Below, in pieces: positions 22,862-56,111 of a stretch of DNA of 64,000 nt. The notes under the pieces are model-generated. The model worked only from the letters and a program-made list of their open reading frames with translations, did no database searches and was not told the origin of the DNA. The stretch is from Dehalococcoidia bacterium (lineage in GTDB: Bacteria > Chloroflexota > Dehalococcoidia > Bin125): NCBI GenBank assembly GCA_965262235.1, contig OZ253504.1:13081-77080 (forward strand). Reading direction: 5' to 3'. A program made the translations under genes and the position numbers. Position 1 is the first letter of the stretch. Each line of letters starts with the position of its first letter.

Positions 22862-23063
22862 CGCTCTGACGATTGCCAGGTGGAATCACGTCGGCGGACT
22901 CGATGTCGATCGACTCCGCTGGCCGAATCACACCACGTGACTACTGGACGCAGTCAGATCCTCTGCCGTGAAGTCACGCGCGGTGCGGCCTGGATCCACC
23001 GCGGAAGCCATCCGCGCTGGTATCCTCGGCGCAACCCACTGGCGACGGGAGGACCGAACGACG

Positions 23064-24197
23064 ATGACCACCGTGACGCCATCCCTCCACGGCGATGCGG
23101 AGATGGATGAACCCATCGACGATGAGGCGCTGAAAAGCGACGCCGACCAAGAAATCCCGGGCATCGAGCGATACGAAATCGGCTTCTACGGAACCGACTT
23201 TCCCGTCGATGCCCTATACAAGCGGTTGTCGACGAGCGAGGAAAACGCGGAGGGCGACATCTATATCCCCGACTTCCAACGAGGATACGTCTGGACGAAG
23301 AGACAGGCCGACAGATTTATCGAGTCCCTGCTCCTCGGGCTTCCAGTCCCTGGGATTTTCCTATCCACGGATCGTCGGACTAGTCGCCGTTTCGTAATTG
23401 ACGGCGGCCAGCGACTGCGAACGATAAAGGCGTTCATGGACGGCAAGTTCAGGGATTCAGACTACACTCTCGGAAAAGGGGTACACGAGGACTTTGAGGG
23501 CAAGCGCTATACCGATCTCACACCGAGCGATCGTCGTCGATTTGATGACGCGATCATTCACGCCACCATCGTCCGGCAAGACCTACCAGAGCGCGGCGAT
23601 CGCTCTCTCTTTTATTTATTTGAGAGGCTTAACACGGGTGGGACACCGGCAGCCGCACACGAAGTTCGACGAAGCCTCTGGGGCGGTTCGTTAAATGTGC
23701 TGATCACGAAGCTCGCAGATAACCGAAACTGGCGCACTGTTTACGGCCGTCCTTCACCTCGGCTCAAAGATCAAGAGCTCATACTCCGTTTCTTCGCTCT
23801 CTACGTAGACGAAAGCCGTTATGGGAACACCGATCAGCGTACGATGAAGGACTTCCTGTCGTCGTTCATGGCTCGGCACCGAGAAATTGCCGAAGATACA
23901 GCTAAGGGATGGTCGGACGCATTCGAAGAGATCATCAAGTTGATTGATGAAGCGTTCGGACACGAGGCGTTCCGACCGGAGGGTAGGCTGAACGCGGCGG
24001 TGTACGACGCCGTCATGGTTGGGCTGGCGCACGCCCGGGACGGGGAGGGGCTGCCCGAGCTGAACGCGCTTCGCTCGGTATATGGTGGACTCATCGCGAA
24101 CAAGGAATTCCATGCCGCGACCAGTGACCGGACCTCCCATCAACCGAATGTCCAGAAACGGCTTCAGCTCGCACGGGCTGCCTTCCGACCGCGGTGA
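23064..24197 (+). CDS. DUF262 (ParB/GmrSD N-terminal-like) domain protein
   Basis: 'FVIDGGQRLRTI' (DGQQR-like motif). Start set at the ATG at 23064, 10 nt after GGGAGGA. GC is lower than the flanks. No DUF1524/HNH half present. Confidence 0.75.
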   Translation: MTTVTPSLHGDAEMDEPIDDEALKSDADQEIPGIERYEIGFYGTDFPVDALYKRLSTSEENAEGDIYIPDFQRGYVWTKRQADRFIESLLLGLPVPGIFLSTDRRTSRRFVIDGGQRLRTIKAFMDGKFRDSDYTLGKGVHEDFEGKRYTDLTPSDRRRFDDAIIHATIVRQDLPERGDRSLFYLFERLNTGGTPAAAHEVRRSLWGGSLNVLITKLADNRNWRTVYGRPSPRLKDQELILRFFALYVDESRYGNTDQRTMKDFLSSFMARHREIAEDTAKGWSDAFEEIIKLIDEAFGHEAFRPEGRLNAAVYDAVMVGLAHARDGEGLPELNALRSVYGGLIANKEFHAATSDRTSHQPNVQKRLQLARAAFRPR

Positions 24198-37715: not shown

Positions 37716-37760
37716 GAATCGCCTGCTTCCGTGCACGTGCTCACTCCGATGATCACTTAG

Positions 37761-38947
37761 GAACGCTCTGAACAAGGCAGGGATGTGGGCTGGTTACGAT
37801 CGGGGCAGCGACCGCCGAAGGGAGCGCCTCGATGCAGGAACCGACGTTTGGCAGCCTGGAGTTTGCGCACAAGAAGCGGAAGACCCGGCGTGAGCGGTTC
37901 CTGGAGCGGCTCGAGTCGCTGGTGCCCTGGGCCGCGTTGGAGGCGCGCGTCGAACCGGTCTATCCCAAGCCGGGGCGCGGACGGCGGCCCTACCGCCTGG
38001 CCGTGATGCTGCGCGTTCACTGCGTGCAGCTCTGCTACAACCTCAGCGACCCGGCGCTCGAGGACTTGCTCTACGAGGCCGAGTCGGTACGCCGCTTCTG
38101 CGGACTGAACCTCAGTGGGCCGATCCCTGACGAGTCGACGATCCTGCACTTTCGTCATCTCTTGGAGCGGCATCAGCTGGGCGAGGCGCTGCTGCAGACG
38201 ATCAACGCGCACCTGGCAGGCCAGGGTCTGCGGCTGCAGGCCGGCACGATCGTGGACGCGAGCATCATCGCGGCGCCGTCCTCGACCAAGAACCAGCGTC
38301 GCCAGCGCGACCCGGAGATGCATCAGACCAAGAAGGGCAACCAGTGGCACTTCGGGATGAAGCTGCATATCGGGGTGGACGCGGACCTGGGCCTGACCCA
38401 CAGCCTGAGCACGACCGCGGCGAACAGCGCCGATGTGACCGAGGCGCATCGGCTCTTGCACGGCGGCGAACGAGCGGCCTGGGGCGACGCCGGCTACCAG
38501 GGCGCGGAGCGGCGTCCCGAACTGGCCGACTCGGCGGTCGAGTGGCGGGTCGCGATGCGTCCCGGCCGCAGGCGCATGCTGCCGCCGGACAGCCCACTCG
38601 CCCAGCGCGAGCGTGAGCGGGCTTCGCTGCGGGCCAAGGTCGAGCATCCCTTCCTCTACATCAAACGGCGCTTCGGCTACGACAAAGTGCGCTATCGCGG
38701 CCTGGCCAAGAATCACCAGCGGCTGGCGCTGTTGCTCGGCTTCGCCAATCTGTTGATCGCCGAGTCGCAACTGGCCTGAACCGGGGCGGACTGCGCCCCT
38801 CGCCCGGCTCGGCCCCACACATGCGGCCAACCGGACCCTCAGCACCGCCCCAACCCATCGCCCCGCTCGCCCACTCACCGCAGTGACCCAACCGCCCGCG
38901 CCCAGTCAGCACGAAGTCCGCTCAATCGCCTCTTGTTCAGAGCGTTC
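37761..38947. mobile_element. IS5-family insertion sequence (1187 bp) with imperfect terminal inverted repeats and a 4-bp TTAG target duplication
   Basis: Left end 'gaacgctctgaacaagg' against the reverse complement of the right end 'gaacgctctgaacaaga'. TTAG at 37757-37760 and 38948-38951, consistent with the YTAR target of IS5. Confidence 0.75.
37832..38779 (+). CDS. IS5-family DDE transposase
   Basis: 315 aa with 'HFGMKLHIGVDADLGLTHSLSTTAANSADV...GDAGYQG', the DDE motif region of IS5/ISL2-like transposases. Confidence 0.85.
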   Translation: MQEPTFGSLEFAHKKRKTRRERFLERLESLVPWAALEARVEPVYPKPGRGRRPYRLAVMLRVHCVQLCYNLSDPALEDLLYEAESVRRFCGLNLSGPIPDESTILHFRHLLERHQLGEALLQTINAHLAGQGLRLQAGTIVDASIIAAPSSTKNQRRQRDPEMHQTKKGNQWHFGMKLHIGVDADLGLTHSLSTTAANSADVTEAHRLLHGGERAAWGDAGYQGAERRPELADSAVEWRVAMRPGRRRMLPPDSPLAQRERERASLRAKVEHPFLYIKRRFGYDKVRYRGLAKNHQRLALLLGFANLLIAESQLA

Positions 38948-39413
38948 TTAGAACCAATTATGGACGACAGGAGCGCCTACGGGTGCTGGTCGTTATGTCC
39001 CGCACCGGGGAGTCACGGGTGCAGCGCAGCGCATGAGGCCGAGTCGCTGTGGAAAACTGTCCGAAATGGGCCGGCACGCGGGGCGGAAGCGGGCGCGGGT
39101 GTCCGATCGCGGGTCTGCCGCTCTGCAGCTCGGGGCGCCGCAAAAGTCAGAGTGGCCGACCATGCCCAGGCCGGAGGGCCGTCCGGTCGCCCATCACCGA
39201 GCTCTCAACTACGTCCTCGCCGCCCCCGTCCGACCGAGATGGGTGAGCGCTGCAGCCGTGGTTGACAGCAGAGCGTGAGCGACCGTGCCCGCAATCAGCG
39301 CCGTGGCCAGGGGCGCGAGCGGGTGAAGTCTGAGTCGCGCGCTCTTGCGGAACAGATTCCGGCTTGCGGTTCCGGGTGATGCTTCCTGGTAGCCGGGTGA
39401 TTCCTTGCCGGTT

Positions 39414-44370: not shown

Positions 44371-45945
<1,575 letters not shown>

Positions 45946-45957
45946 TGAGCCACAGTC

Positions 45958-46380
45958 ATGCCGCTCCAACTGGACCACCTCAGAGACTCCATCAAGGCGC
46001 TGGTCGACTTGCTGGCAGTCACCGAGAACGAAGCGCGCATGGCGCAATTCACGGAAGTCGAACGCAACGGCATTCGCGCCGGCGTCATCCAGAATTTCGA
46101 GGTCACCTACGAACTCGCTTGGAAGCTGATCGCGCGTTGGCTGGAGACCAACATCAGCACCGATATCGTGCGCGACGCCACGAGACGCGAATTCTTCCGT
46201 ATCGCCGCCCGATATCTCCTGATCGCTGACGTAGCTGACTGGATGCGCTACCACGAAGCGAGGAACACGACCTCCCACAGATACAACAAGAAAATGGCGG
46301 AGATCGTCTATCTGGCCGCCAGGGACTTCGCCCATGACGCGCAGCGACTCCTCACAACACTGGAAGCGCGCAATGATTGA
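45958..46380 (+). CDS. HEPN-type nucleotidyltransferase substrate-binding protein (HI0074 family), HEPN half of an MNT-HEPN pair
   Basis: 'VIQNFEVTYELAWKLI' and 'HEARNTTSHRY' (Rx4H) match HI0074/NTase_sub_bind. The stop overlaps the next ATG. Confidence 0.8.
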   Translation: MPLQLDHLRDSIKALVDLLAVTENEARMAQFTEVERNGIRAGVIQNFEVTYELAWKLIARWLETNISTDIVRDATRREFFRIAARYLLIADVADWMRYHEARNTTSHRYNKKMAEIVYLAARDFAHDAQRLLTTLEARND

Positions 46381-47881
46381 CCTCAACCCGCATCACCTCG
46401 AGACGGTCAAGCGCATCCTCGCCGAGCATGTGCCCGACTGCGAGGTGCGCGCCTTCGGCTCGCGCGCCACCTGGACCGCGTGGGAGTACTCGGACCTCGA
46501 TCTGGCCGTCGTCAGTCACGAGCCGCTCGATCGGCGAACCAGCGCCAACCTGCGCGAAGCGTTCGAGGAGTCGGACCTCCCAATCCGCGTCGATGTCGTG
46601 GATTGGGCAACGCTGACAGATGGATTCCGGCAGGCAATCGAGGGAGACCTCGTCGTACTGAAAGAAGCAGCGACATCGAGCGACTGGCGCGAAACCACAC
46701 TCGGCGACGTGATCGAGCTGAAGCGTGGCTATGACCTTCCTCAACGCGAACGTGTGCCCGGTCCCGTGCCTCTCGTCTCCTCGTCTGGAATCAGCGACCA
46801 TCACTCGGAGGCCAAAGTCAAGGGTCCCGGAGTGGTGACAGGACGTTACGGCACGCTTGGACAGGTTTACTACATCCAGGACGACTTCTGGCCCTTGAAC
46901 ACGACACTCTATGTCCGTGATTTCAAGGGCAATGATCCGAGGTTCATCAGCTACTTTCTGCAGGGTCTCGATTTTTTCGCGTACTCTGATAAAGCTGCGG
47001 TGCCGGGCTTGAATCGAAACCATCTCCACACGGCGATCGTGCACCTCCCCCCACTCGACGAACAACGACGTATCGCCGGCATCCTCGGCGCCCTCGACGA
47101 CAAGATCGAGCTCAACCGACGCATGAGCCAGACCCTCGAAGCCATGGCCCAAGCCCTCTTCAAGTCCTGGTTCGTCGACTTCGACCCCGTCCACGCCAAG
47201 GCCGAGGGACGGTCAAGCGGCCTCCCGCCGAACCTAGACGCGCTCTTCCCCCACTCGTTCCAAGAGTCGGAGTTGGGCGAGATCCCGTCGGGCTGGGAGC
47301 TAGGGTCACTGGGCGATGTGGCGACGGAGCGAAGGCGCACGGCGAAACCGAGAGACGTTGATCCTGCAACGCCATACATCGCTCTGGCGCATATGCCGCA
47401 ACGGAGCATCGCCCTCAATCAATGGGCCGTCGCAGAGGGAATCGAAAGCGGCAAGTTCGCCTTCAAACGTGGGGAACTCCTATTCGGCAAGCTCCGCCCC
47501 TATTTCCACAAAGTTGGCGTCGCGCCGCTGGACGGGGTGTGCTCCACCGACATCGTGGTGGCAGCTCCCAAGTTGCCGGGCTGGTTTGGATTCGTCCTGG
47601 GCCACATGGCCAGTGCGGCGTTCGTCGACTACACCGACGCGGGATCAACGGGCACGCGAATGCCGCGCACAAGCTGGACACGAATGGCGCAGTACCAGAT
47701 TGTGATGCCGCCCGACGAGGTGGCAGCGGCATTCTCCGCGAGCATCCGCCCGAGCATTGACGGCATGATCTGCACTACCCATAAGTCACGCACGCTTGGC
47801 GTTCTGCGTGATACGCTGATGCCACGCTTGATCGAGGGGGCGTTCAGGAACGATACGTACAGGTCCGGAGGACATGGGTGA
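46373..47881 (+). CDS. hsdS: Minimal nucleotidyltransferase (MNT, HI0073-like) domain fused in frame to the Type I R-M specificity subunit HsdS
   Basis: Residues 1-100 carry 'RAFGSRATWTAWEYSDLDLAV' (NTase fold). From 'WRETTLGDVIELKRG' on there are two TRDs and the central 'PPLDEQRRIAGILGALDDKIELNRRMSQTLEAMAQALFKSWFVDFDPV'. No stop or ATG separates the two parts. Confidence 0.7.
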   Translation: MIDLNPHHLETVKRILAEHVPDCEVRAFGSRATWTAWEYSDLDLAVVSHEPLDRRTSANLREAFEESDLPIRVDVVDWATLTDGFRQAIEGDLVVLKEAATSSDWRETTLGDVIELKRGYDLPQRERVPGPVPLVSSSGISDHHSEAKVKGPGVVTGRYGTLGQVYYIQDDFWPLNTTLYVRDFKGNDPRFISYFLQGLDFFAYSDKAAVPGLNRNHLHTAIVHLPPLDEQRRIAGILGALDDKIELNRRMSQTLEAMAQALFKSWFVDFDPVHAKAEGRSSGLPPNLDALFPHSFQESELGEIPSGWELGSLGDVATERRRTAKPRDVDPATPYIALAHMPQRSIALNQWAVAEGIESGKFAFKRGELLFGKLRPYFHKVGVAPLDGVCSTDIVVAAPKLPGWFGFVLGHMASAAFVDYTDAGSTGTRMPRTSWTRMAQYQIVMPPDEVAAAFSASIRPSIDGMICTTHKSRTLGVLRDTLMPRLIEGAFRNDTYRSGGHG

Positions 47882-49311
47882 ACTCACAGTATCATTCGCG
47901 CATTAGCCGTCTTGAAAGGGAAATCGCGGGGCATGACAAAACTATAGGAACACTTGCCAAACAAGAGGCCGATTCGGTAGCCAAGATAAACAAGGCGCAA
48001 TCCGCCATGAATAAGGCCGCTAGTATCTCCACGCGCAACTCCAAGGCACGCGAACACGAACGGGAGACCAAACGCCTTGCAGAAACCAAGAAAAAGCAGT
48101 CCGACATCTCAACGAAGCGTGCGAACGCGACGAAAACACTTCGCGACTACCAGAAGCGCCAAGCCGGTGCGGACGAATCCGCGCGGAAGCGGGAAGCGCG
48201 GGAACAACGAAAGTTGATGCAGGAACGCGAATCCCATCAACGGCGCATGAATCAAGCAGCCACAGAATCCTCGTGGCGTTTTGAGGCTCAGCCCCAATCC
48301 GATAACACGACTGATGTTTTACAGCTAGAAGAGGATCCGATGGCAGACGTAGCGAAGCAAAACCCAACAGCCTTCGTTTCCTACTCGTGGGACAACGAGG
48401 AGCACAAATCGTGGGTTCGTGATCTGGCCCGCCGGCTAAGGCGTGACGGCATTGACGTCAAGCTTGACCAGTGGGAGACCGCTCCAGGTGACCAACTGAC
48501 AGCGTTCATGGAGCGTGGCGTTCGCGAGCATGATTTTGTCGCGATCATATGCACGCGTAAGTACAAGGAACGGTCGGACTCTCGCGCCGGTGGCGTCGGG
48601 TATGAGGGCGACATTATGACCGCAGAGGTCTCACGGGAGCAGAATCATCGCAAGTTCATCCCGATCTTGAGGAGCGGAACTTGGGAGACAGCGGCCCCCT
48701 TCTGGGTGGAAGGCAAGTACTACATCGATCTTCGCGGGAATCCGTACGATCAAAGGGCATACCATGATTTGCTCCTAACGCTGCGAGGAGAGCGCTCAAC
48801 GGCGCCACCTCTTGGACAACGTCAGACCAGAGATGCAGAACCGGCGAGAGGCACCGAACCCGACCGACGCAAGGAGAGCGAAGAGGCGGGCGGAGCAGAC
48901 CCAGAAGAAATACGTATTACTGGAGTCATTGTCGACGAGGTAACGGAACCCACCAACGACGGCAGGCCTGGCAGTGCCTTGTACACTGTCCCACTCAGGC
49001 TTTCCGCAACTCCCTCAAGCGTTTGGTCGCAACTCTTTGTCAGAAATTGGAATAGCCCGCCGACGTGGACGCCAATGCACCGCCCCGGCATCGCTCGCGT
49101 TAGCGGAAGTAAGGTCCTGCTTGAAGGGACGATGATTGAGGAAGTGGAGAAAGTACACCGCGACACTCTCCAGGCAGTGGTTAGTGCCACCAATCGGGAC
49201 TACGGGATCTACGTGGCTGACTTGGAACGCAAACGCCGCTCGAGGGAAGAGGAGCGAGAGCAGCACCACCGGACCGTGGGCGATGTCGCGGGCAGAATCA
49301 CATTCGAGTGA
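47878..49311 (+). CDS. Coiled-coil / TIR-like (TIR_2 or SEFIR-type) domain protein with an unknown C-terminal domain
   Basis: GTG start overlaps the hsdS TGA, with GGAGGA 6 nt upstream. Residues about 155-290 read 'AFVSYSWDNEEHKSWVRDLARRLRRDGIDVKLDQWETAPGDQLTAFMERGVREHDFVAIICTRKYKERSDS'. GC is about 55%. Confidence 0.6.
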   Translation: MNSQYHSRISRLEREIAGHDKTIGTLAKQEADSVAKINKAQSAMNKAASISTRNSKAREHERETKRLAETKKKQSDISTKRANATKTLRDYQKRQAGADESARKREAREQRKLMQERESHQRRMNQAATESSWRFEAQPQSDNTTDVLQLEEDPMADVAKQNPTAFVSYSWDNEEHKSWVRDLARRLRRDGIDVKLDQWETAPGDQLTAFMERGVREHDFVAIICTRKYKERSDSRAGGVGYEGDIMTAEVSREQNHRKFIPILRSGTWETAAPFWVEGKYYIDLRGNPYDQRAYHDLLLTLRGERSTAPPLGQRQTRDAEPARGTEPDRRKESEEAGGADPEEIRITGVIVDEVTEPTNDGRPGSALYTVPLRLSATPSSVWSQLFVRNWNSPPTWTPMHRPGIARVSGSKVLLEGTMIEEVEKVHRDTLQAVVSATNRDYGIYVADLERKRRSREEEREQHHRTVGDVAGRITFE

Positions 49312-49328
49312 TCGCAAGTGTGTAATCG

Positions 49329-52463
<3,135 letters not shown>

Positions 52464-52661: not shown

Positions 52662-55600
52662 TCACCGGGTGTTGCCACAGTGTCTGAGCTTCGGGTTGCT
52701 GAAATCGCGGATACCGAAGCTGAATCGCTCCAGCCCCCCCGGAATGCACCCCTCGAGTCTGTTGCCGCCCAGATACAGAAGGGTCAGGCGCGGCAACGTC
52801 CCGAACCCTGTCGGGATCTCGCCGGTCAATTCGTTGCCCGACAACCCGATGGTCTGCAGCTTGCTCAGCCCGGCCAACTCCACCGGGATCTCGCCGCTGA
52901 GCTGGTTGCTGCTCAAACCAAGGTGTCGGATCTCCGAGAGCCGGCCGAATTCCGGAGGGATGGGGCCGGTCAGTTCGTTGCCGCTGAGCTCGAGCACTTG
53001 CAGGTCCAACAGCCTGCTCAGGGCGAGCGGGATCCGGCCGCCCAACGCTCGCCTCGACAGGTTGACGGCGATGACTCGACCGGACCACGGATCGACCGTC
53101 ACTCCGTCCCACTGGCCCAAGGCGAGATCAGCGCTCCAGTTCAGCCGGGCGTCAACAGCCAGCACCTGAGCAGCTTCGAGCAATGCCGCGCAATCGGCGG
53201 CGCTCGCGGGCGAGTCGCACGAACTGATCAGGTGCGGCGGTTCCTGTCTACGAATCGAGGCCGCAACGGAATCGAGCAGGAGTGGGACGTTTCGGCCGCG
53301 GGAGTCTCTAATCAGCTCGCGTCCCAGTTCCGCTCCGCTGACGGCGTCAATCTCGATCAACGAACCGCTCGACTCATCACGCAGCAGAATGCTGCGGTAG
53401 CAGTCGCCTTCTCTTGCGCAGATCGTCTCGGCCCGTTCCAGCGTCAGCCGCATTCCGCGCGGCACGTCCGCGATGAGGTAGTCCGAATACCCGATGTTGT
53501 AAGTCCTCCCACCATCAACAGGCTGAAGGATGTACATCCAGGGGAAGCCGTTGCCTGCGAGCGGAAGGTCGAGCGGTTGCACGCGCGCAGACTCGACGAT
53601 GCGATCGAACAATGCTGAGACGCTGACCTCGCATTCATGAGGACCTTCGGTGACCGAGCGAGCGAACTCGTCACCCTTGAACGGATCGATCACCACGTGA
53701 GAGTCACTTCTCTTTTCCACGATCTGAACGAGAATCTGCCCGTTGTCGTCGCGGTACATCTCACCGAGACTGAACTCCCCTTGCTCTGGAAGATCGACCA
53801 CGAGCTGGAACGTGACTCGGTAGGCGCCCGACCGCTCGGTGGAATCGCGGGGCATATACGGAATGTCGTCCTCGCCAAACGAAAGAGTCGATTCGATCGA
53901 GGAGCCGTCATCCCACGTTGCCGGACACTCGCAGTAGCGGAGCCCCGCCTCTTCGCGGTCGAACACTGAGTCCTTGAGCGCGATCGGCATGCAACCATCG
54001 AATTGGTTGCCGCCCAGCCACAGATACCAGTCCCATACCGCATAGATCTCCGTGAACTCGTGCGGAATCGAGCCGGTCAACCGGTTCCCGCTCAGATCCA
54101 GCCAGCCCCCGTCGAGGCGCGCCAGGTCCGCGGGAATCTCGCCGCTCAGCCGGTTATTCGCCAGCCTCAGCTCACGCAGGTTCTCAAGTGCACCGAGCGT
54201 GGCGGGTATTGCCCCGCTCAGCCGGTTATCGGTCAGCCATAGCTCTCGAAGTTCAGTGAGTGCGCCGAGTTCCGCCGGGATCGCTCCGCTGAGCTGGTTC
54301 GAATCCAGGATCAGATGGGTGAGGTTGCGGAGATGCCCGAGTTCGGCGGGAATCTCGCCGGTCATTCGGTTGCCGCTCAGCGACAGCCACGCGAGGCTGG
54401 TCAGGTTTGCCAGGACCGCCGGAATCCGGCCGCTGATCCCTTGACCAGAAAGTCCAAGAGCCCGAACTCGTCCTGTCGATGCGTCCAACCCGACACCGAT
54501 CCAATCCGCGAGCGGGGTGGCGGCGCTCCAGTTCAAGATCTCGGAATCGCCGGCCAGAATTTCCTTTGACTCGAGCAGAGCGGCACAGTCGTTGATCAGC
54601 TCTTGGCTCTGCTCGAAATCGGCCAGGGCGGGGCCGCTCGCGCAGGCTTCGACCAGCAATGGATTGAGCGGGGGCGCCGACACGAGCACCTGGACGGCGT
54701 CGCACCAGGGCAAATCGATGGTCCCGATCGGCGTGCCGTCGTCCCTCACGGGCACCGACAACTTGGACCACAACGCCGTCGGAATGCAGCCGGTCAATCG
54801 ATTGTTGACGAATCCGAAATGGTTCAGGTTCGGCAAGTCGGCGACTTCTTGCGGGATCGGTCCCGTCAATTGATTGGTGTCCACCGACAAATCCCACAGA
54901 TTCGTGAGGTTGCCCAGCTCGGATGGGATCTGGCCTGTCAGCCGGTTGCCACCCAAGCGCAGGAAGTTCAGGTCCTTGAGCGAACCGAGCTCGGGCGGGA
55001 TCTCGCCCGTCAGCATGTTGCCGCTGAGGATCAATGCCTGAAGGAAAACGGCTGCGGCGAGTTCGCGAGGGATCTCACCGCTCAGGCGATTGCCTCCCAG
55101 ATACAGGATCCCCAGCCCGGCCCTACCGAACTCAGCCGGGATCTCTCCGCTGAGCTGATTACCCCTGAAGTCCACAAACCAGAGGTACGGCAGCGCAGCA
55201 ATCTCCACCGGGATCTCACCTTCAAGCTGATTTTCGAGCAGCCACAGCTCTCGCAGTCTTGTGATCTGGCCCAACTCGGCTGGGATCCGGCCGGTTAGCT
55301 TCGAACCGGTGATATGGATGACGCTCAAACCCGAGAGCAGACCGAGTTCTCGCGGGATCTCTCCCGTTAGCTCGTTGCGACGGAACTTCAGTATCCGCAG
55401 GCGATCGAGTCTGGCCAGTCCCGGCGGAATCCGTCCACGCAGGGCGGACTCGATGGAGATCTCGGTGACGCGCGGCGGCCGCCCGCTCACCGTGATCCCC
55501 AGCCACTCTTCGATGGGTCGTTCGGCGCTCCAGTTCAGTTCCTCCGCGCCGCCGCTGAGGGTGTCTCGCTCCTGAAGCAGAACGGCGCAGTCGCGAACGA

Positions 55601-56111
55601 GTTCGGTGTTGCGCTCTGGATTGGCGACGGCCGTCCCATTCGAGCAGTCCGCCAGCGCGCTATCGTCCGTCGGCGGGACATACAGCTCAATGTTCCCGTA
55701 GCGGTAGCGACCCGTCGAACTGAACCCGTCGTCCAGGGCCAATGGGATCATCCCCAGCCTGAGCCACGATTCCCCTTCGGCTCGAGCGCTGATGAAGATG
55801 CTCCGACCATCGGCAACCGCCTGCGAGACTCGCAACTCGACGGTTGTGGCGTCATCGTCCTGCGCAGCAGCGTCAAACGCGATGTCGCCGTAGCGGTACC
55901 GCCCCGAAAAGCTAAACCCGTCGTCCAGCGGCAGCGCCACAGTGCCCAGCGTCAGCCAGGCGCCACCCGCCGGCCGTGCGCTGATATAGAGATTCCGCTC
56001 GTCTCGCTCGTCCTGCCAGACGCGAACCTCGACCGTTGCCCTGTACTGGCTGTAAGCCGTCGGCGTGACGCCGAGGAGCAGGAGTGTCGTCAGGGCCAGG
56101 ATCACGTGCAT
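52662..56111 (-). CDS. Secreted leucine-rich-repeat protein with three plant-type LRR modules, each preceded by an LRRNT-like cap
   Basis: Signal peptide. Repeated 24-residue units 'LxxLxxLxLxxNxLTGxIPxxLGxL'. Three 'LNWSA...W.GV...GRV..L.LS' caps. Duplicated N-terminal ~130-aa domain. Confidence 0.75.
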   Translation of the reverse strand: MHVILALTTLLLLGVTPTAYSQYRATVEVRVWQDERDERNLYISARPAGGAWLTLGTVALPLDDGFSFSGRYRYGDIAFDAAAQDDDATTVELRVSQAVADGRSIFISARAEGESWLRLGMIPLALDDGFSSTGRYRYGNIELYVPPTDDSALADCSNGTAVANPERNTELVRDCAVLLQERDTLSGGAEELNWSAERPIEEWLGITVSGRPPRVTEISIESALRGRIPPGLARLDRLRILKFRRNELTGEIPRELGLLSGLSVIHITGSKLTGRIPAELGQITRLRELWLLENQLEGEIPVEIAALPYLWFVDFRGNQLSGEIPAEFGRAGLGILYLGGNRLSGEIPRELAAAVFLQALILSGNMLTGEIPPELGSLKDLNFLRLGGNRLTGQIPSELGNLTNLWDLSVDTNQLTGPIPQEVADLPNLNHFGFVNNRLTGCIPTALWSKLSVPVRDDGTPIGTIDLPWCDAVQVLVSAPPLNPLLVEACASGPALADFEQSQELINDCAALLESKEILAGDSEILNWSAATPLADWIGVGLDASTGRVRALGLSGQGISGRIPAVLANLTSLAWLSLSGNRMTGEIPAELGHLRNLTHLILDSNQLSGAIPAELGALTELRELWLTDNRLSGAIPATLGALENLRELRLANNRLSGEIPADLARLDGGWLDLSGNRLTGSIPHEFTEIYAVWDWYLWLGGNQFDGCMPIALKDSVFDREEAGLRYCECPATWDDGSSIESTLSFGEDDIPYMPRDSTERSGAYRVTFQLVVDLPEQGEFSLGEMYRDDNGQILVQIVEKRSDSHVVIDPFKGDEFARSVTEGPHECEVSVSALFDRIVESARVQPLDLPLAGNGFPWMYILQPVDGGRTYNIGYSDYLIADVPRGMRLTLERAETICAREGDCYRSILLRDESSGSLIEIDAVSGAELGRELIRDSRGRNVPLLLDSVAASIRRQEPPHLISSCDSPASAADCAALLEAAQVLAVDARLNWSADLALGQWDGVTVDPWSGRVIAVNLSRRALGGRIPLALSRLLDLQVLELSGNELTGPIPPEFGRLSEIRHLGLSSNQLSGEIPVELAGLSKLQTIGLSGNELTGEIPTGFGTLPRLTLLYLGGNRLEGCIPGGLERFSFGIRDFSNPKLRHCGNTR

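Follow-up and report, generated by a model that had tools for sequence, protein, structure and literature searches.

Predicted SEFIR effector as exchangeable cargo between hsdS and hsdR of a type I restriction-modification operon

The type I restriction-modification (RM) operon in the window analyzed here (a 64,000-nt stretch of a Dehalococcoidia bacterium contig, OZ253504.1) carries between hsdS and hsdR a gene for a 477-aa protein that combines a coiled coil, a SEFIR domain, and a conserved C-terminal domain (CTD) (47878..49311, + strand). By analogy with characterized SEFIR systems, we consider it probable (around 70%) that this protein is a single-protein, abortive-infection-type anti-phage effector and exchangeable cargo of a hotspot at the hsdS–hsdR junction.

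Results

A foreign gene inside a genuine hsd operon

Judging by profile matches, the operon has genuine hsdM, hsdS, and hsdR genes and is arranged as hsdM / (HEPN-like) / MNT-hsdS / X / hsdR, with the SEFIR gene in position X. The first gene encodes the methyltransferase subunit HsdM (44371..45945, +; Pfam N6_Mtase 1.2e-104 and HsdM_N 4.4e-26; PADLOC MTase_I 1.1e-209), and the restriction subunit HsdR is encoded at the far end (49344..52463, +; Pfam HSDR_N, SWI2_SNF2, and T1RH-like_C; PADLOC REase_I, E=0). Between hsdM and hsdS lies an NTase_sub_bind gene (HEPN-like, HI0074-type; 45958..46380, +; Pfam PF08780, 9.1e-30), which is found in the same place at loci L002, L133, L148, and L169 and represents a second embedded cargo of the operon. 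It is followed by an in-frame fusion of an MNT nucleotidyltransferase to hsdS (46334..47881, +) in which Pfam Polbeta/NTP_transf_2 and Methylase_S match within one ORF (MNT domain aa 13-107, hsdS aa 116-505; PADLOC Specificity_I 1.6e-84) and which was found again in five loci. By comparison with L169, the fusion likely starts at ATG 46373, overlapping the upstream stop by 8 nt. Besides the SEFIR gene, the operon contains only hsd genes and this HEPN-like/MNT pair.

The GTG start of the SEFIR gene at 47878 overlaps the hsdS stop (TGA, 47879-81) as GTGA, just as originally predicted from the sequence, and the start of a 72%-identical homologue of the same 477-aa length (P0002) likewise overlaps its hsdS stop. 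The Shine-Dalgarno-like GGAGGA that had been pointed out upstream is present (47867..47872, +; read from the sequence), though with a spacer of 5 nt and not 6 nt. The stop codon occupies 49309-11, and the 17-nt gap to hsdR given in the original prediction holds for the first possible start of this ORF, which is open from TTG 49329. However, the start called for hsdR in L169 (13473) is equivalent to 49344 of the window, and nucleotide homology resumes at 49345 (L169 13474); because of this orthology we place the hsdR start at GTG 49344, so that the real gap is 32 nt. No terminator-like or promoter-like sites were found on the + strand within the operon, which agrees with the proposed co-transcription.

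The base composition of the gene (GC 0.567, GC3 0.62) departs from that of hsdM (0.658/0.89) and hsdR (0.665/0.88) in the direction described before, with figures close to the earlier estimates of ca. 55% versus ca. 68%, and only 0.2% of same-size windows across the 64 kb are as low in GC. This low, foreign GC is kept in all five hosts. The intact gene evolves under purifying selection, with dN/dS of 0.11-0.16 in its three folded parts and ca. 0.9 in the linkers.

Domain architecture

For the N-terminal part (aa 1-135; 47878..48282, +), AlphaFold2 predicts a helical hairpin or coiled coil with helices at residues 2-46 and 50-132 (pLDDT 82-93), in line with the coiled coil first proposed for the initial ca. 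140 residues. This region is 38% identical to the N terminus of a coiled-coil-TIR protein encoded at L169, and the PADLOC model PDC-S66, a non-validated defense candidate, matches the 477-aa protein at aa 3-232 (profile positions 4-216, 2.6e-30). Both this protein and PDC-S66 thus have a homologous coiled coil (profile positions 4-135) followed by a STIR-clan domain, and both are found directly after hsdS, embedded in type I RM operons; L169 and L171 hold full PDC-S66 proteins there. Unlike the 477-aa protein with its SEFIR domain and CTD, PDC-S66 members are ca. 285 aa long and have a canonical ThsB-like TIR domain (profile positions ca. 136-282) with no further domain. The match of the 477-aa protein stops at profile position 216, while PDC-S66 scores 313 bits for L169, 378 bits for L173, and 187 bits for L171, with matches spanning positions 1-280 in L169 and L173 and reaching 209 in the IS-truncated L171. 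Relatives without the coiled coil match PDC-S66 only at positions ca. 136-217 or further.

The putative NADase effector is the central SEFIR domain (aa ca. 161-315; 48358..48822, +), which is recognized by Pfam, PADLOC, PDB profile, and Foldseek searches. In hmmscan, both Pfam TIR_2 (1e-20, 74.9 bits, aa 166-298) and Pfam SEFIR (PF08357; 8.6e-15, 55.7 bits, cut-off 23) score above their curated cut-offs, which bears out the TIR_2/SEFIR-like signature noted in the original prediction. A PADLOC search, also proposed there, returned bSEFIR (PDLC03957; 3.9e-66, 222.5 bits), if only for profile positions 34-203 of 412, besides the embedding-derived candidate PDC-S66. Millman et al. (2022, preprint) had recognized SEFIR proteins by a SEFIR match stronger than the TIR match; that rule used HHsearch, whereas here hmmscan favors TIR_2 (74.9 versus 55.7 bits) and the structures favor SEFIR, with a profile match to the Bacillus cereus SEFIR crystal structure 5y8e (1.3e-32) of 116.7 bits as compared to 28.5 bits for the best TIR structure. 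Foldseek also places 5y8e on top, ahead of the NADase TIRs BtTir, AbTir, and SPARTA, and BLASTP aligns a SEFIR protein from Bacillus velezensis over the whole domain at 38% identity, with only aa 159-314 included. On these profile and structure matches, the protein is a STIR-clan effector with a true prokaryotic SEFIR domain.

With bSEFIR (Bacillus sp. NIO-1130; B. cereus 5y8e) the domain shares FxSYxW, LDxW, FME, and RxGGVGxE...KFIP motifs, but it is internal here, with an extra coiled coil in front of it. The proteins also differ behind the domain, where the Bacillus proteins, which cover bSEFIR profile positions 37-385 and are taken as bSEFIR-type, have a C-terminal region of ca. 300 aa as opposed to an unrelated CTD of ca. 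140 aa in the 477-aa protein. This CTD (aa ca. 341-477; 48898..49308, +) comprises a small alpha/beta unit and a ca. 50-aa helix and is conserved in 435 representatives of 50%-identity clusters. As the original prediction had said of the last ca. 150 residues, it matched no known family in Pfam; no solved fold matched, nothing significant was found in BFVD, and hhalign gave a probability of 0.2%, i.e., no homology, for its profile against the Bacillus SEFIR C-terminal region. Sensing and regulation may therefore not be the same as in the validated SEFIR system. In its modular composition, the protein reads as a chimera of a PDC-S66 N-terminal module and a SEFIR+CTD core.

The predicted structure resembles the TIR NADases AbTir, BtTir, SPARTA TIR-APAZ, and SARM1 in its flavodoxin-like STIR fold (Foldseek probability 1.00, TM 0.65-0.75 on the target). 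As TIR NADases need oligomerization, the flanking helical domains are plausible oligomerization or regulatory elements. However, sequence identity to these enzymes is only 16-23%, SEFIR forms an outgroup to TIR, and the canonical catalytic motif W-x-x-x-E is not evident in a part of the alignment that is ambiguous. Invariant SEFIR columns include D197, W199, G204, E212, R236, the G238-G244 motif with E243, and E250. A profile alignment to the canonical TIR domain of L169, ambiguous at 51% probability, assigns the TIR catalytic Glu to a gap next to R236, not to E243.

Given that the catalytic Glu is not mapped with confidence, the protein could conceivably act non-enzymatically, either as a SEFIR-SEFIR adaptor or scaffold in the manner of IL-17R/Act1 or as a toxin-like addiction module that stabilizes the hsd locus or the mobile cassette without phage sensing. 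Eukaryotic SEFIR domains are adaptors, mutation of the SEFIR-SEFIR interface abolishes bacterial defense, and the HEPN-like/MNT pair of the operon is of toxin-antitoxin type. We nevertheless regard such a role as very unlikely, since NAD+ depletion has been reported for bacterial SEFIR, acidic and basic residues are invariant in the part equivalent to the active site of TIR, and clustering of neighboring genes at 83 loci revealed no cognate antitoxin gene.

The hsdS–hsdR junction as a cargo hotspot

In 40 of 45 related operons with HsdM proteins 66-79% identical, hsdS and hsdR are separated by cargo, including SIR2, GajA/UvrD, AbiEii, DarT, AriA, AbiL, Mrr, PDC-S19/S06, and HEC-01, and much of this cargo matches known or candidate defense families. 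Orthologous loci with flanks of 91-95% identity differ in content: L169 encodes the coiled-coil-TIR protein (PDC-S66) in this slot and L170 a DUF6978+DUF1828 pair. According to blastn break-points against L169, the exchangeable segment (47212..49343, +) comprises the second target-recognition domain of hsdS together with the cargo gene; it shows no nucleotide homology to L169 and 83% identity to L083.

The synteny comparison suggested earlier thus speaks against an ancestral hsd accessory subunit, which we reject because the gene was found in none of 80 operons with HsdM 66-79% identical (0/80) and orthologous loci differ. Together with the foreign base composition, the other cargo at L169 and L170 marks the gene as strain-variable and exchangeable, as expected from the horizontally acquired insertion originally postulated. 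Compared with the remainder of the gene, the coiled coil has a lower dS, suggesting that effectors are exchanged behind an N-terminal module that remains in the operon.

A widespread SEFIR+CTD core with few hsd-embedded members

Homologues of the protein number more than 1,500, come from more than 20 phyla, and are mostly SEFIR+CTD proteins of ca. 313 aa. About 60 of 80 of these core-only relatives have the SEFIR domain at the N terminus; in the 477-aa protein it is internal (from aa ca. 161). In this SEFIR subfamily, the domain is always paired with the family-specific CTD. A general linkage of the SEFIR+CTD family to hsd genes was rejected, as no hsd gene lay closer than 10 kb at 77 of 80 genome loci. 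Instead, core-only relatives adjoin genes for an integrase, SMODS, SNF2, helicases, and transposases or, on Enterococcus megaplasmids, AbiJ-NTD4 and Doc genes. Single-gene organization in defense-island or mobile-element contexts is shared with bSEFIR, and NAD+ depletion is expected by analogy.

All-against-all clustering of neighboring ORFs at 83 loci found no conserved partner gene, with no family present at more than five of them (5/83). Apart from antisense shadow ORFs within the SEFIR gene itself, no cluster was recurrent. Had the protein been a signaling TIR like ThsB of Thoeris, whose cyclic-ADPR-type or other NAD-derived messenger activates an effector encoded elsewhere, a ThsA-like gene might have appeared, but there was neither a ThsA-type gene adjacent to the SEFIR gene nor a ThsA-like or other conserved partner at any of the 83 loci. 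Membership in the STIR clan, weak PADLOC ThsB matches (0.013), and the ThsB-like TIR of the L169 slot-mate (PADLOC ThsB1 9.6e-37) are consistent with signaling. Yet the match of the domain to SEFIR is far stronger than that to ThsB, and published SEFIR systems are single-gene NAD+ depleters, which makes such a messenger-producing role extremely improbable in our eyes.

The immediate relatives behave differently from the family at large: all five closest ones (61-100% identity) lie directly after hsdS with starts that overlap or nearly do so, and four of five proteins carrying this coiled coil are hsd-embedded. These counts go beyond simple chance insertion and leave room for functional coupling. 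However, the embedded relatives at L001, L002, and L084 lack the coiled coil and begin with unrelated N-terminal domains instead, and a full PDC-S66 homologue (coiled-coil-TIR) is encoded on a Niallia plasmid outside any annotated hsd operon. Further coiled-coil carriers were sought in a set of 5.8 billion proteins, but no more than one passed, probably owing to low-complexity filtering.

Discussion

The anticodon nuclease gene prrC occupies the slot between hsdS and hsdR, and the original prediction had drawn an analogy to PrrC/RloC as nucleases embedded in hsd loci. The 477-aa protein shares with them the position and, as predicted here, the role of an abortive-infection effector co-transcribed with restriction genes. 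It differs in that no ABC-ATPase or anticodon-nuclease domain was matched in Pfam or PADLOC searches and in its predicted target, which is NAD+ and not tRNA. While PrrC is almost exclusively embedded in type I systems (Payne et al. 2024), the SEFIR+CTD core is mostly not hsd-linked, with only the closest clade (5/5) and the coiled-coil carriers (4/5) being embedded.

A PrrC-like guard would have the coiled coil dock a latent SEFIR NADase on the HsdM/HsdS/HsdR complex until a phage anti-restriction protein disables the restriction enzyme, whereupon the NADase is set free and the cell dies. The slot shared with prrC, the translational coupling to hsdS, the embedding of all five closest relatives, and the lower dS of a coiled coil that may be kept with the operon would all fit, as would the finding that orthologous operons hold, in this slot, two distinct STIR effectors with one and the same coiled coil, which recurs in L171. 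Nonetheless, we consider a guard unlikely and the proposed PrrC/RloC-like coupling unsupported in view of a core without hsd context at most loci (77/80), unrelated N-terminal domains in embedded relatives, a coiled-coil-TIR protein outside hsd operons, and dozens of unrelated cargos in the slot of related operons, which mean that position alone does not imply interaction with Hsd proteins. It is distinctly unlikely, too, that the coiled coil serves as an hsd-slot adaptor that tethers interchangeable STIR NADases (TIR or SEFIR+CTD) to the restriction complex and lets them fire when a phage inhibits restriction. If this were true, the locus would hold a natural allelic series of a PrrC-like sensor of restriction alleviation that works via NAD+ depletion.

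The exchangeable single-protein effector that we favor would function as follows. Phage infection would switch the SEFIR protein on, as suggested by the Bacillus and Streptococcus systems, probably through sensor-driven oligomerization via the CTD and/or the coiled coil. The SEFIR domain would then hydrolyze NAD+ to ADP-ribose and nicotinamide, and the loss of NAD+ would starve the infected cell and the phage. The hsdS–hsdR junction would act as a recombination-driven hotspot at which a defense cassette and the adjacent hsdS target-recognition domain are exchanged between conserved parts of hsdS and hsdR. Co-transcription and co-transfer with restriction would follow from the slot, and a mechanistic dependence on restriction would not be needed.

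The abortive-infection-type activity originally proposed is thus probable by analogy with NAD+-depleting SEFIR defenses. A SEFIR protein defends Bacillus subtilis against phi29 (Millman et al. 2022, preprint), and published work has further shown that NAD+ depletion by SEFIR is brought about by its SEFIR domain and that the NARP1 pathway of phages overcomes the system, lists SEFIR among NAD+-degrading immune domains, and reports activity against streptococcal phages. Defense genes embedded in type I RM loci have been explored systematically by "guilt-by-embedding", from which the PDC models, for genes lying within type I RM, BREX, or DISARM systems, were built (Payne et al. 2024); the available portion of that study's supplementary text makes no mention of PDC-S66 or SEFIR. 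The novelty first ascribed to a TIR effector inside an hsd operon does not hold up, given that SEFIR single-gene defense is validated, type I embedding has been described, and PADLOC models exist. The finding is an example of two known things, i.e., NAD+-depleting SEFIR defense and the hsdS–hsdR junction hotspot, and not a new kind of system.

What the locus adds concerns the modules around the SEFIR domain. The CTD of this subfamily differs from the bSEFIR-type region of Bacillus, so the presumed trigger-sensing part of most SEFIR defense proteins would be distinct from that of the Bacillus proteins. Coiled-coil-TIR versus coiled-coil-SEFIR-CTD proteins at one locus in close strains constitute a natural module swap that could help to reveal the role of the coiled coil and would allow PDC-S66 to be tested functionally for the first time. 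Should the coiled coil contact the restriction complex, this would represent a new guard mechanism that links restriction to NAD+ depletion.

A SEFIR gene inside a Type I restriction-modification operon

The genes surrounding the 477-aa ORF form a clear Type I restriction-modification (R-M) system with hsdM (Pfam N6_Mtase, 1.2e-104), hsdS (Methylase_S; PADLOC Specificity_I, 1.6e-84) and hsdR (HSDR_N, SWI2_SNF2 and T1RH-like_C; PADLOC REase_I, E = 0). The ORF itself lies between hsdS and hsdR on the forward strand (47878-49311, stop codon at 49309-49311) and encodes a coiled coil, a SEFIR domain and a C-terminal domain (CTD). The original prediction had located it correctly, including a GTG start that shares bases with the hsdS TGA (GTGA), and only small corrections were needed elsewhere. 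The GGAGGA upstream (47867-47872, forward strand) is present, albeit 5 rather than 6 bases ahead of the GTG, and the proposed distance of 17 nt to hsdR holds for the first possible start of that ORF, a TTG at 49329. Judging from the orthologous locus L169, where nucleotide homology to the window picks up again immediately behind the start codon of hsdR, the GTG at 49344 (MTTI.EAD...) is a more likely hsdR start than this TTG; because the L169 start codon corresponds to GTG 49344, the real gap would be 32 nt. In L169, the stop codon of the gene preceding hsdR overlaps the hsdR ATG (ATGA). No terminator-like or sigma-70-like sites were found on the forward strand inside the operon.

The composition of the SEFIR gene is foreign, and the low GC content noted earlier was confirmed at 0.567 (GC3 0.62) versus 0.658 (0.89) for hsdM and 0.665 (0.88) for hsdR. 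Only 0.2% of equal-sized segments across the 64 kb have a GC content this low, and the gene stays at 0.55-0.59 in hosts with hsdM values anywhere between 0.63 and 0.71.

Domain architecture and probable mosaic history

An AlphaFold2 model based on a 46-sequence alignment (mean pLDDT 81) predicts two long helices (residues 2-46 and 50-132), a flavodoxin-like domain (160-302) and a small alpha/beta unit that leads into a helix of ~50 residues (345-473). Disordered linkers separate the three, the second of them at residues 316-339. The middle domain is a SEFIR domain, and the TIR_2/SEFIR-like signature read from the sequence was a good call: Pfam TIR_2 (1e-20) and SEFIR (8.6e-15) each score above their cut-offs, the PADLOC model of SEFIR defense (bSEFIR) matches at 3.9e-66, and a family profile reaches 1.3e-32 against 5y8e, the crystal structure of a B. 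cereus SEFIR, but only 7e-6 against the best TIR structure. The motifs FISYSW, LDRW, FME and R-GGVG-E...KFIP are common to the family profile and 5y8e, which also heads the Foldseek ranking, with the TIR NADases BtTir, SPARTA and AbTir coming next. Residues invariant among 46 homologues include D197, W199, G204, E212, R236, the G238-G244 motif with E243, and E250. E243, a residue also conserved in Bacillus SEFIRs and located where the helix after strand C makes its first turn, may be the catalytic glutamate, though this placement is unreliable; the profile alignment to a canonical TIR (only 51% probable) leaves the catalytic glutamate in a gap beside R236.

Sequence searches show that the CTD (residues ~341-477) is a real, conserved domain, with 435 matches at E ≤ 0.001 among 1.84 billion cluster representatives. 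It is nearly always C-terminal among the 150 matches listed. Of 85 proteins sampled, at least 61 have it behind a TIR_2/SEFIR domain, and some carry added N-terminal modules such as EAD7, AbiJ_NTD3 or a protein kinase.

The N-terminal coiled coil aligns with positions 4-135 of the PADLOC phage-defense candidate PDC-S66, and in relatives lacking this coiled coil the match to the PDC-S66 profile is confined to the TIR part. When compared with its relative in locus L083 (1693-3126 of that locus), the gene shows a dN/dS of about 0.9 in the linkers as opposed to 0.11-0.16 across its three folded parts. At the same time, dS rises from 0.42 (coiled coil) to 1.37 (SEFIR domain) and 2.0 (CTD), and this unevenness suggests that the coiled-coil module and the effector differ in history. 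The pattern points to a mosaic origin with recombination within the SEFIR gene near the first linker, and the most fitting description of the protein is a three-part mosaic that combines the N-terminal module of PDC-S66 with a SEFIR domain of bSEFIR type and with the CTD typical of the large SEFIR+CTD subfamily.

Relation to known defense systems

SEFIR homologues were reported by Millman et al. from 460 genomes in more than 20 phyla. Later work describes SEFIR as a single-protein system whose SEFIR domain depletes NAD+ to ADPR and nicotinamide, and shows that it is defeated by the phage NARP1 pathway; a SEFIR system also acts against streptococcal phages, with narrow specificity. Regarding genomic location, Payne et al. 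found embedded genes to be frequent in BREX, DISARM and Type I R-M systems (the anticodon nuclease PrrC almost exclusively in the latter) and drew from them 145 candidate systems (PDC) that were added to PADLOC. Embedded genes in Type I loci of Campylobacter had been noted earlier, as mentioned by Makarova et al. citing Miller et al. 2005. The view that a TIR effector in an hsd operon is undescribed was therefore not correct in substance, since SEFIR defense and Type I embedding have both been reported. Our literature search found no discussion of this particular 477-aa protein, and PDC-S66 appeared only in genome-annotation lists, so we regard the latter as not validated.

Annotation tools would probably file the protein under bSEFIR. 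The Bacillus SEFIR proteins that span this profile (positions 37-385 covered) share the SEFIR domain with 38% identity across it, but carry it at the N-terminus and continue into a C-terminal region of ~300 aa that is unrelated to the CTD.

We consider it about 70% probable that the protein is an autonomous abortive-infection NADase and that its operon position results from cassette exchange at a hotspot. In this reading, a phage cue sensed via the coiled coil and/or the CTD would lead to oligomerization, as is known for TIR-type NADases, and then to destruction of NAD+ by the SEFIR domain. The data establish the identity of the domain, its conservation, its single-gene status, the variable slot and the foreign composition, whereas the NADase activity, its trigger, the oligomerization and what the two flanking domains do are inferred. 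Compared with such an NADase, non-enzymatic or addiction roles seem quite improbable, and a TIR that produces a signal even more so.

Family contexts and turnover of the hsdS-hsdR slot

The family comprises more than 1,500 homologues and is typified by a SEFIR+CTD protein of ~313 aa spanning query residues ~160-477. Among 80 genome loci sampled from more than 20 phyla, about 60 encode this core alone and about 18 have unrelated N-terminal extensions; an hsd gene lies within 10 kb in only three of the 80, none of which is embedded, and no conserved neighboring gene family was found around these loci. Core-only relatives with ~60% identity adjoin an integrase, a SMODS protein, an SNF2 helicase and an AAA ATPase in one setting, large helicases and transposases in a second, and an hsdR remnant in a third. 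Enterococcus megaplasmids also carry family members, here alongside AbiJ-NTD4 and Doc genes, and phage and prophage records hold more distant SEFIR-domain genes. This is the behavior of a mobile, single-gene defense module.

A guard function resembling that of PrrC would fit the finding that each of the four closest relatives recovered, at 61-72% identity, directly follows hsdS in a Type I operon, with a start that overlaps hsdS or nearly does so. It would also fit the pairing of one coiled coil with two different effectors in this slot. However, the core family occurs for the most part independently of hsd, the N-terminal regions of these four embedded relatives are of three unrelated kinds, and a PDC-S66 copy lies on a Niallia plasmid outside any annotated hsd operon, so that we consider such a guard unlikely.

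Among 80 metagenomic operons whose HsdM shares 66-79% identity with that of the window, 45 contain both hsdS and hsdR. Cargo of 0.3-7 kb, mostly co-directional, separates these two genes in 40 of the 45, none of it a SEFIR gene. It includes SIR2, GajA with a UvrD helicase, AbiEii, DarT, AriA, AbiL, Abi_C and Mrr-type nucleases, matches to the PADLOC candidates PDC-S19, PDC-S06, HEC-01, PDC-M41 and PDC-M30, and IS200 transposases.

The original prediction had read the gene as an insertion, and synteny bears this out in that two orthologous loci, L169 and L170, hold different cargo. Their flanks are 91-95% nucleotide-identical to the window and share the upstream epimerase, with L170 additionally sharing the sulfate permease, acetyl-CoA hydrolase and downstream leucine-rich-repeat (LRR) genes. 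The L169 slot encodes a 295-aa protein of coiled coil and canonical TIR domain, a full PDC-S66 member (313 bits) whose coiled coil is 38% identical to that of the window protein (31% over a wider BLAST alignment); the L170 slot contains a 208-aa ORF, DUF6978 and DUF1828. Homology between the window and L169 breaks off within hsdS, in its central conserved region, and restarts at the hsdR start, implying that the exchanged unit is the second hsdS target-recognition domain together with the cargo. This same unit is common to the window and L083 at 83% identity. Locus L171 (8001-10172 of that locus) is a further example of turnover in this slot: a PDC-S66-type coiled-coil-TIR gene behind hsdS has been cut short at 208 aa by insertion of an IS3-family element (HTH_Tnp_1 and rve fragments), and a GmrSD_C gene follows hsdR.

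An MNT-HsdS fusion and other features of the window

A second embedded module lies between hsdM and hsdS (45958-47881) and consists of an NTase_sub_bind (HEPN-like) gene and, behind it, a single ORF in which an MNT nucleotidyltransferase domain (NTP_transf_2/Polbeta, residues 13-107) is fused in frame to HsdS (Methylase_S, residues 116-505). The fusion recurs in four of the compared loci (L002, L133, L148 and L169), always with the HEPN-like gene ahead and with MNT domains 60-92% identical. We found no description of it in the literature searched, and the SEFIR gene itself may be less unusual than this covalent joining of an antitoxin domain of toxin-antitoxin type to a specificity subunit.

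Elsewhere, a 409-aa ORF (22968-24197) with a GmrSD_N (DUF262) domain (1.9e-26) in another low-GC patch (~0.57) is probably a horizontally acquired Type IV restriction-like defense gene. The ~1.2 kb at 37758-38951 are 97% identical to three L169 copies bearing DDE_Tnp_1/DUF772 transposase genes and are an active IS element shared with this close relative. In L169, copies occur on either side of the hsd operon, about 3 kb ahead of it and right behind it, and the window copy lies ~5.4 kb upstream of the epimerase gene preceding hsdM. Directly downstream of hsdR, a 1,149-aa LRR protein is encoded on the opposite strand (52662-56111, reverse strand); L170 has a shorter LRR gene at the corresponding place.

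Implications

The protein is a mosaic-architecture member of the known SEFIR defense class in a known embedding hotspot. Three features merit follow-up: the uncharacterized CTD carried by most SEFIR-type proteins of the subfamily, the recurrent in-frame MNT-HsdS fusion, and the natural swap of coiled-coil-TIR and coiled-coil-SEFIR-CTD proteins at one locus. Cassette exchange at this hotspot would set the position of the gene and give it co-expression and co-transfer with restriction.
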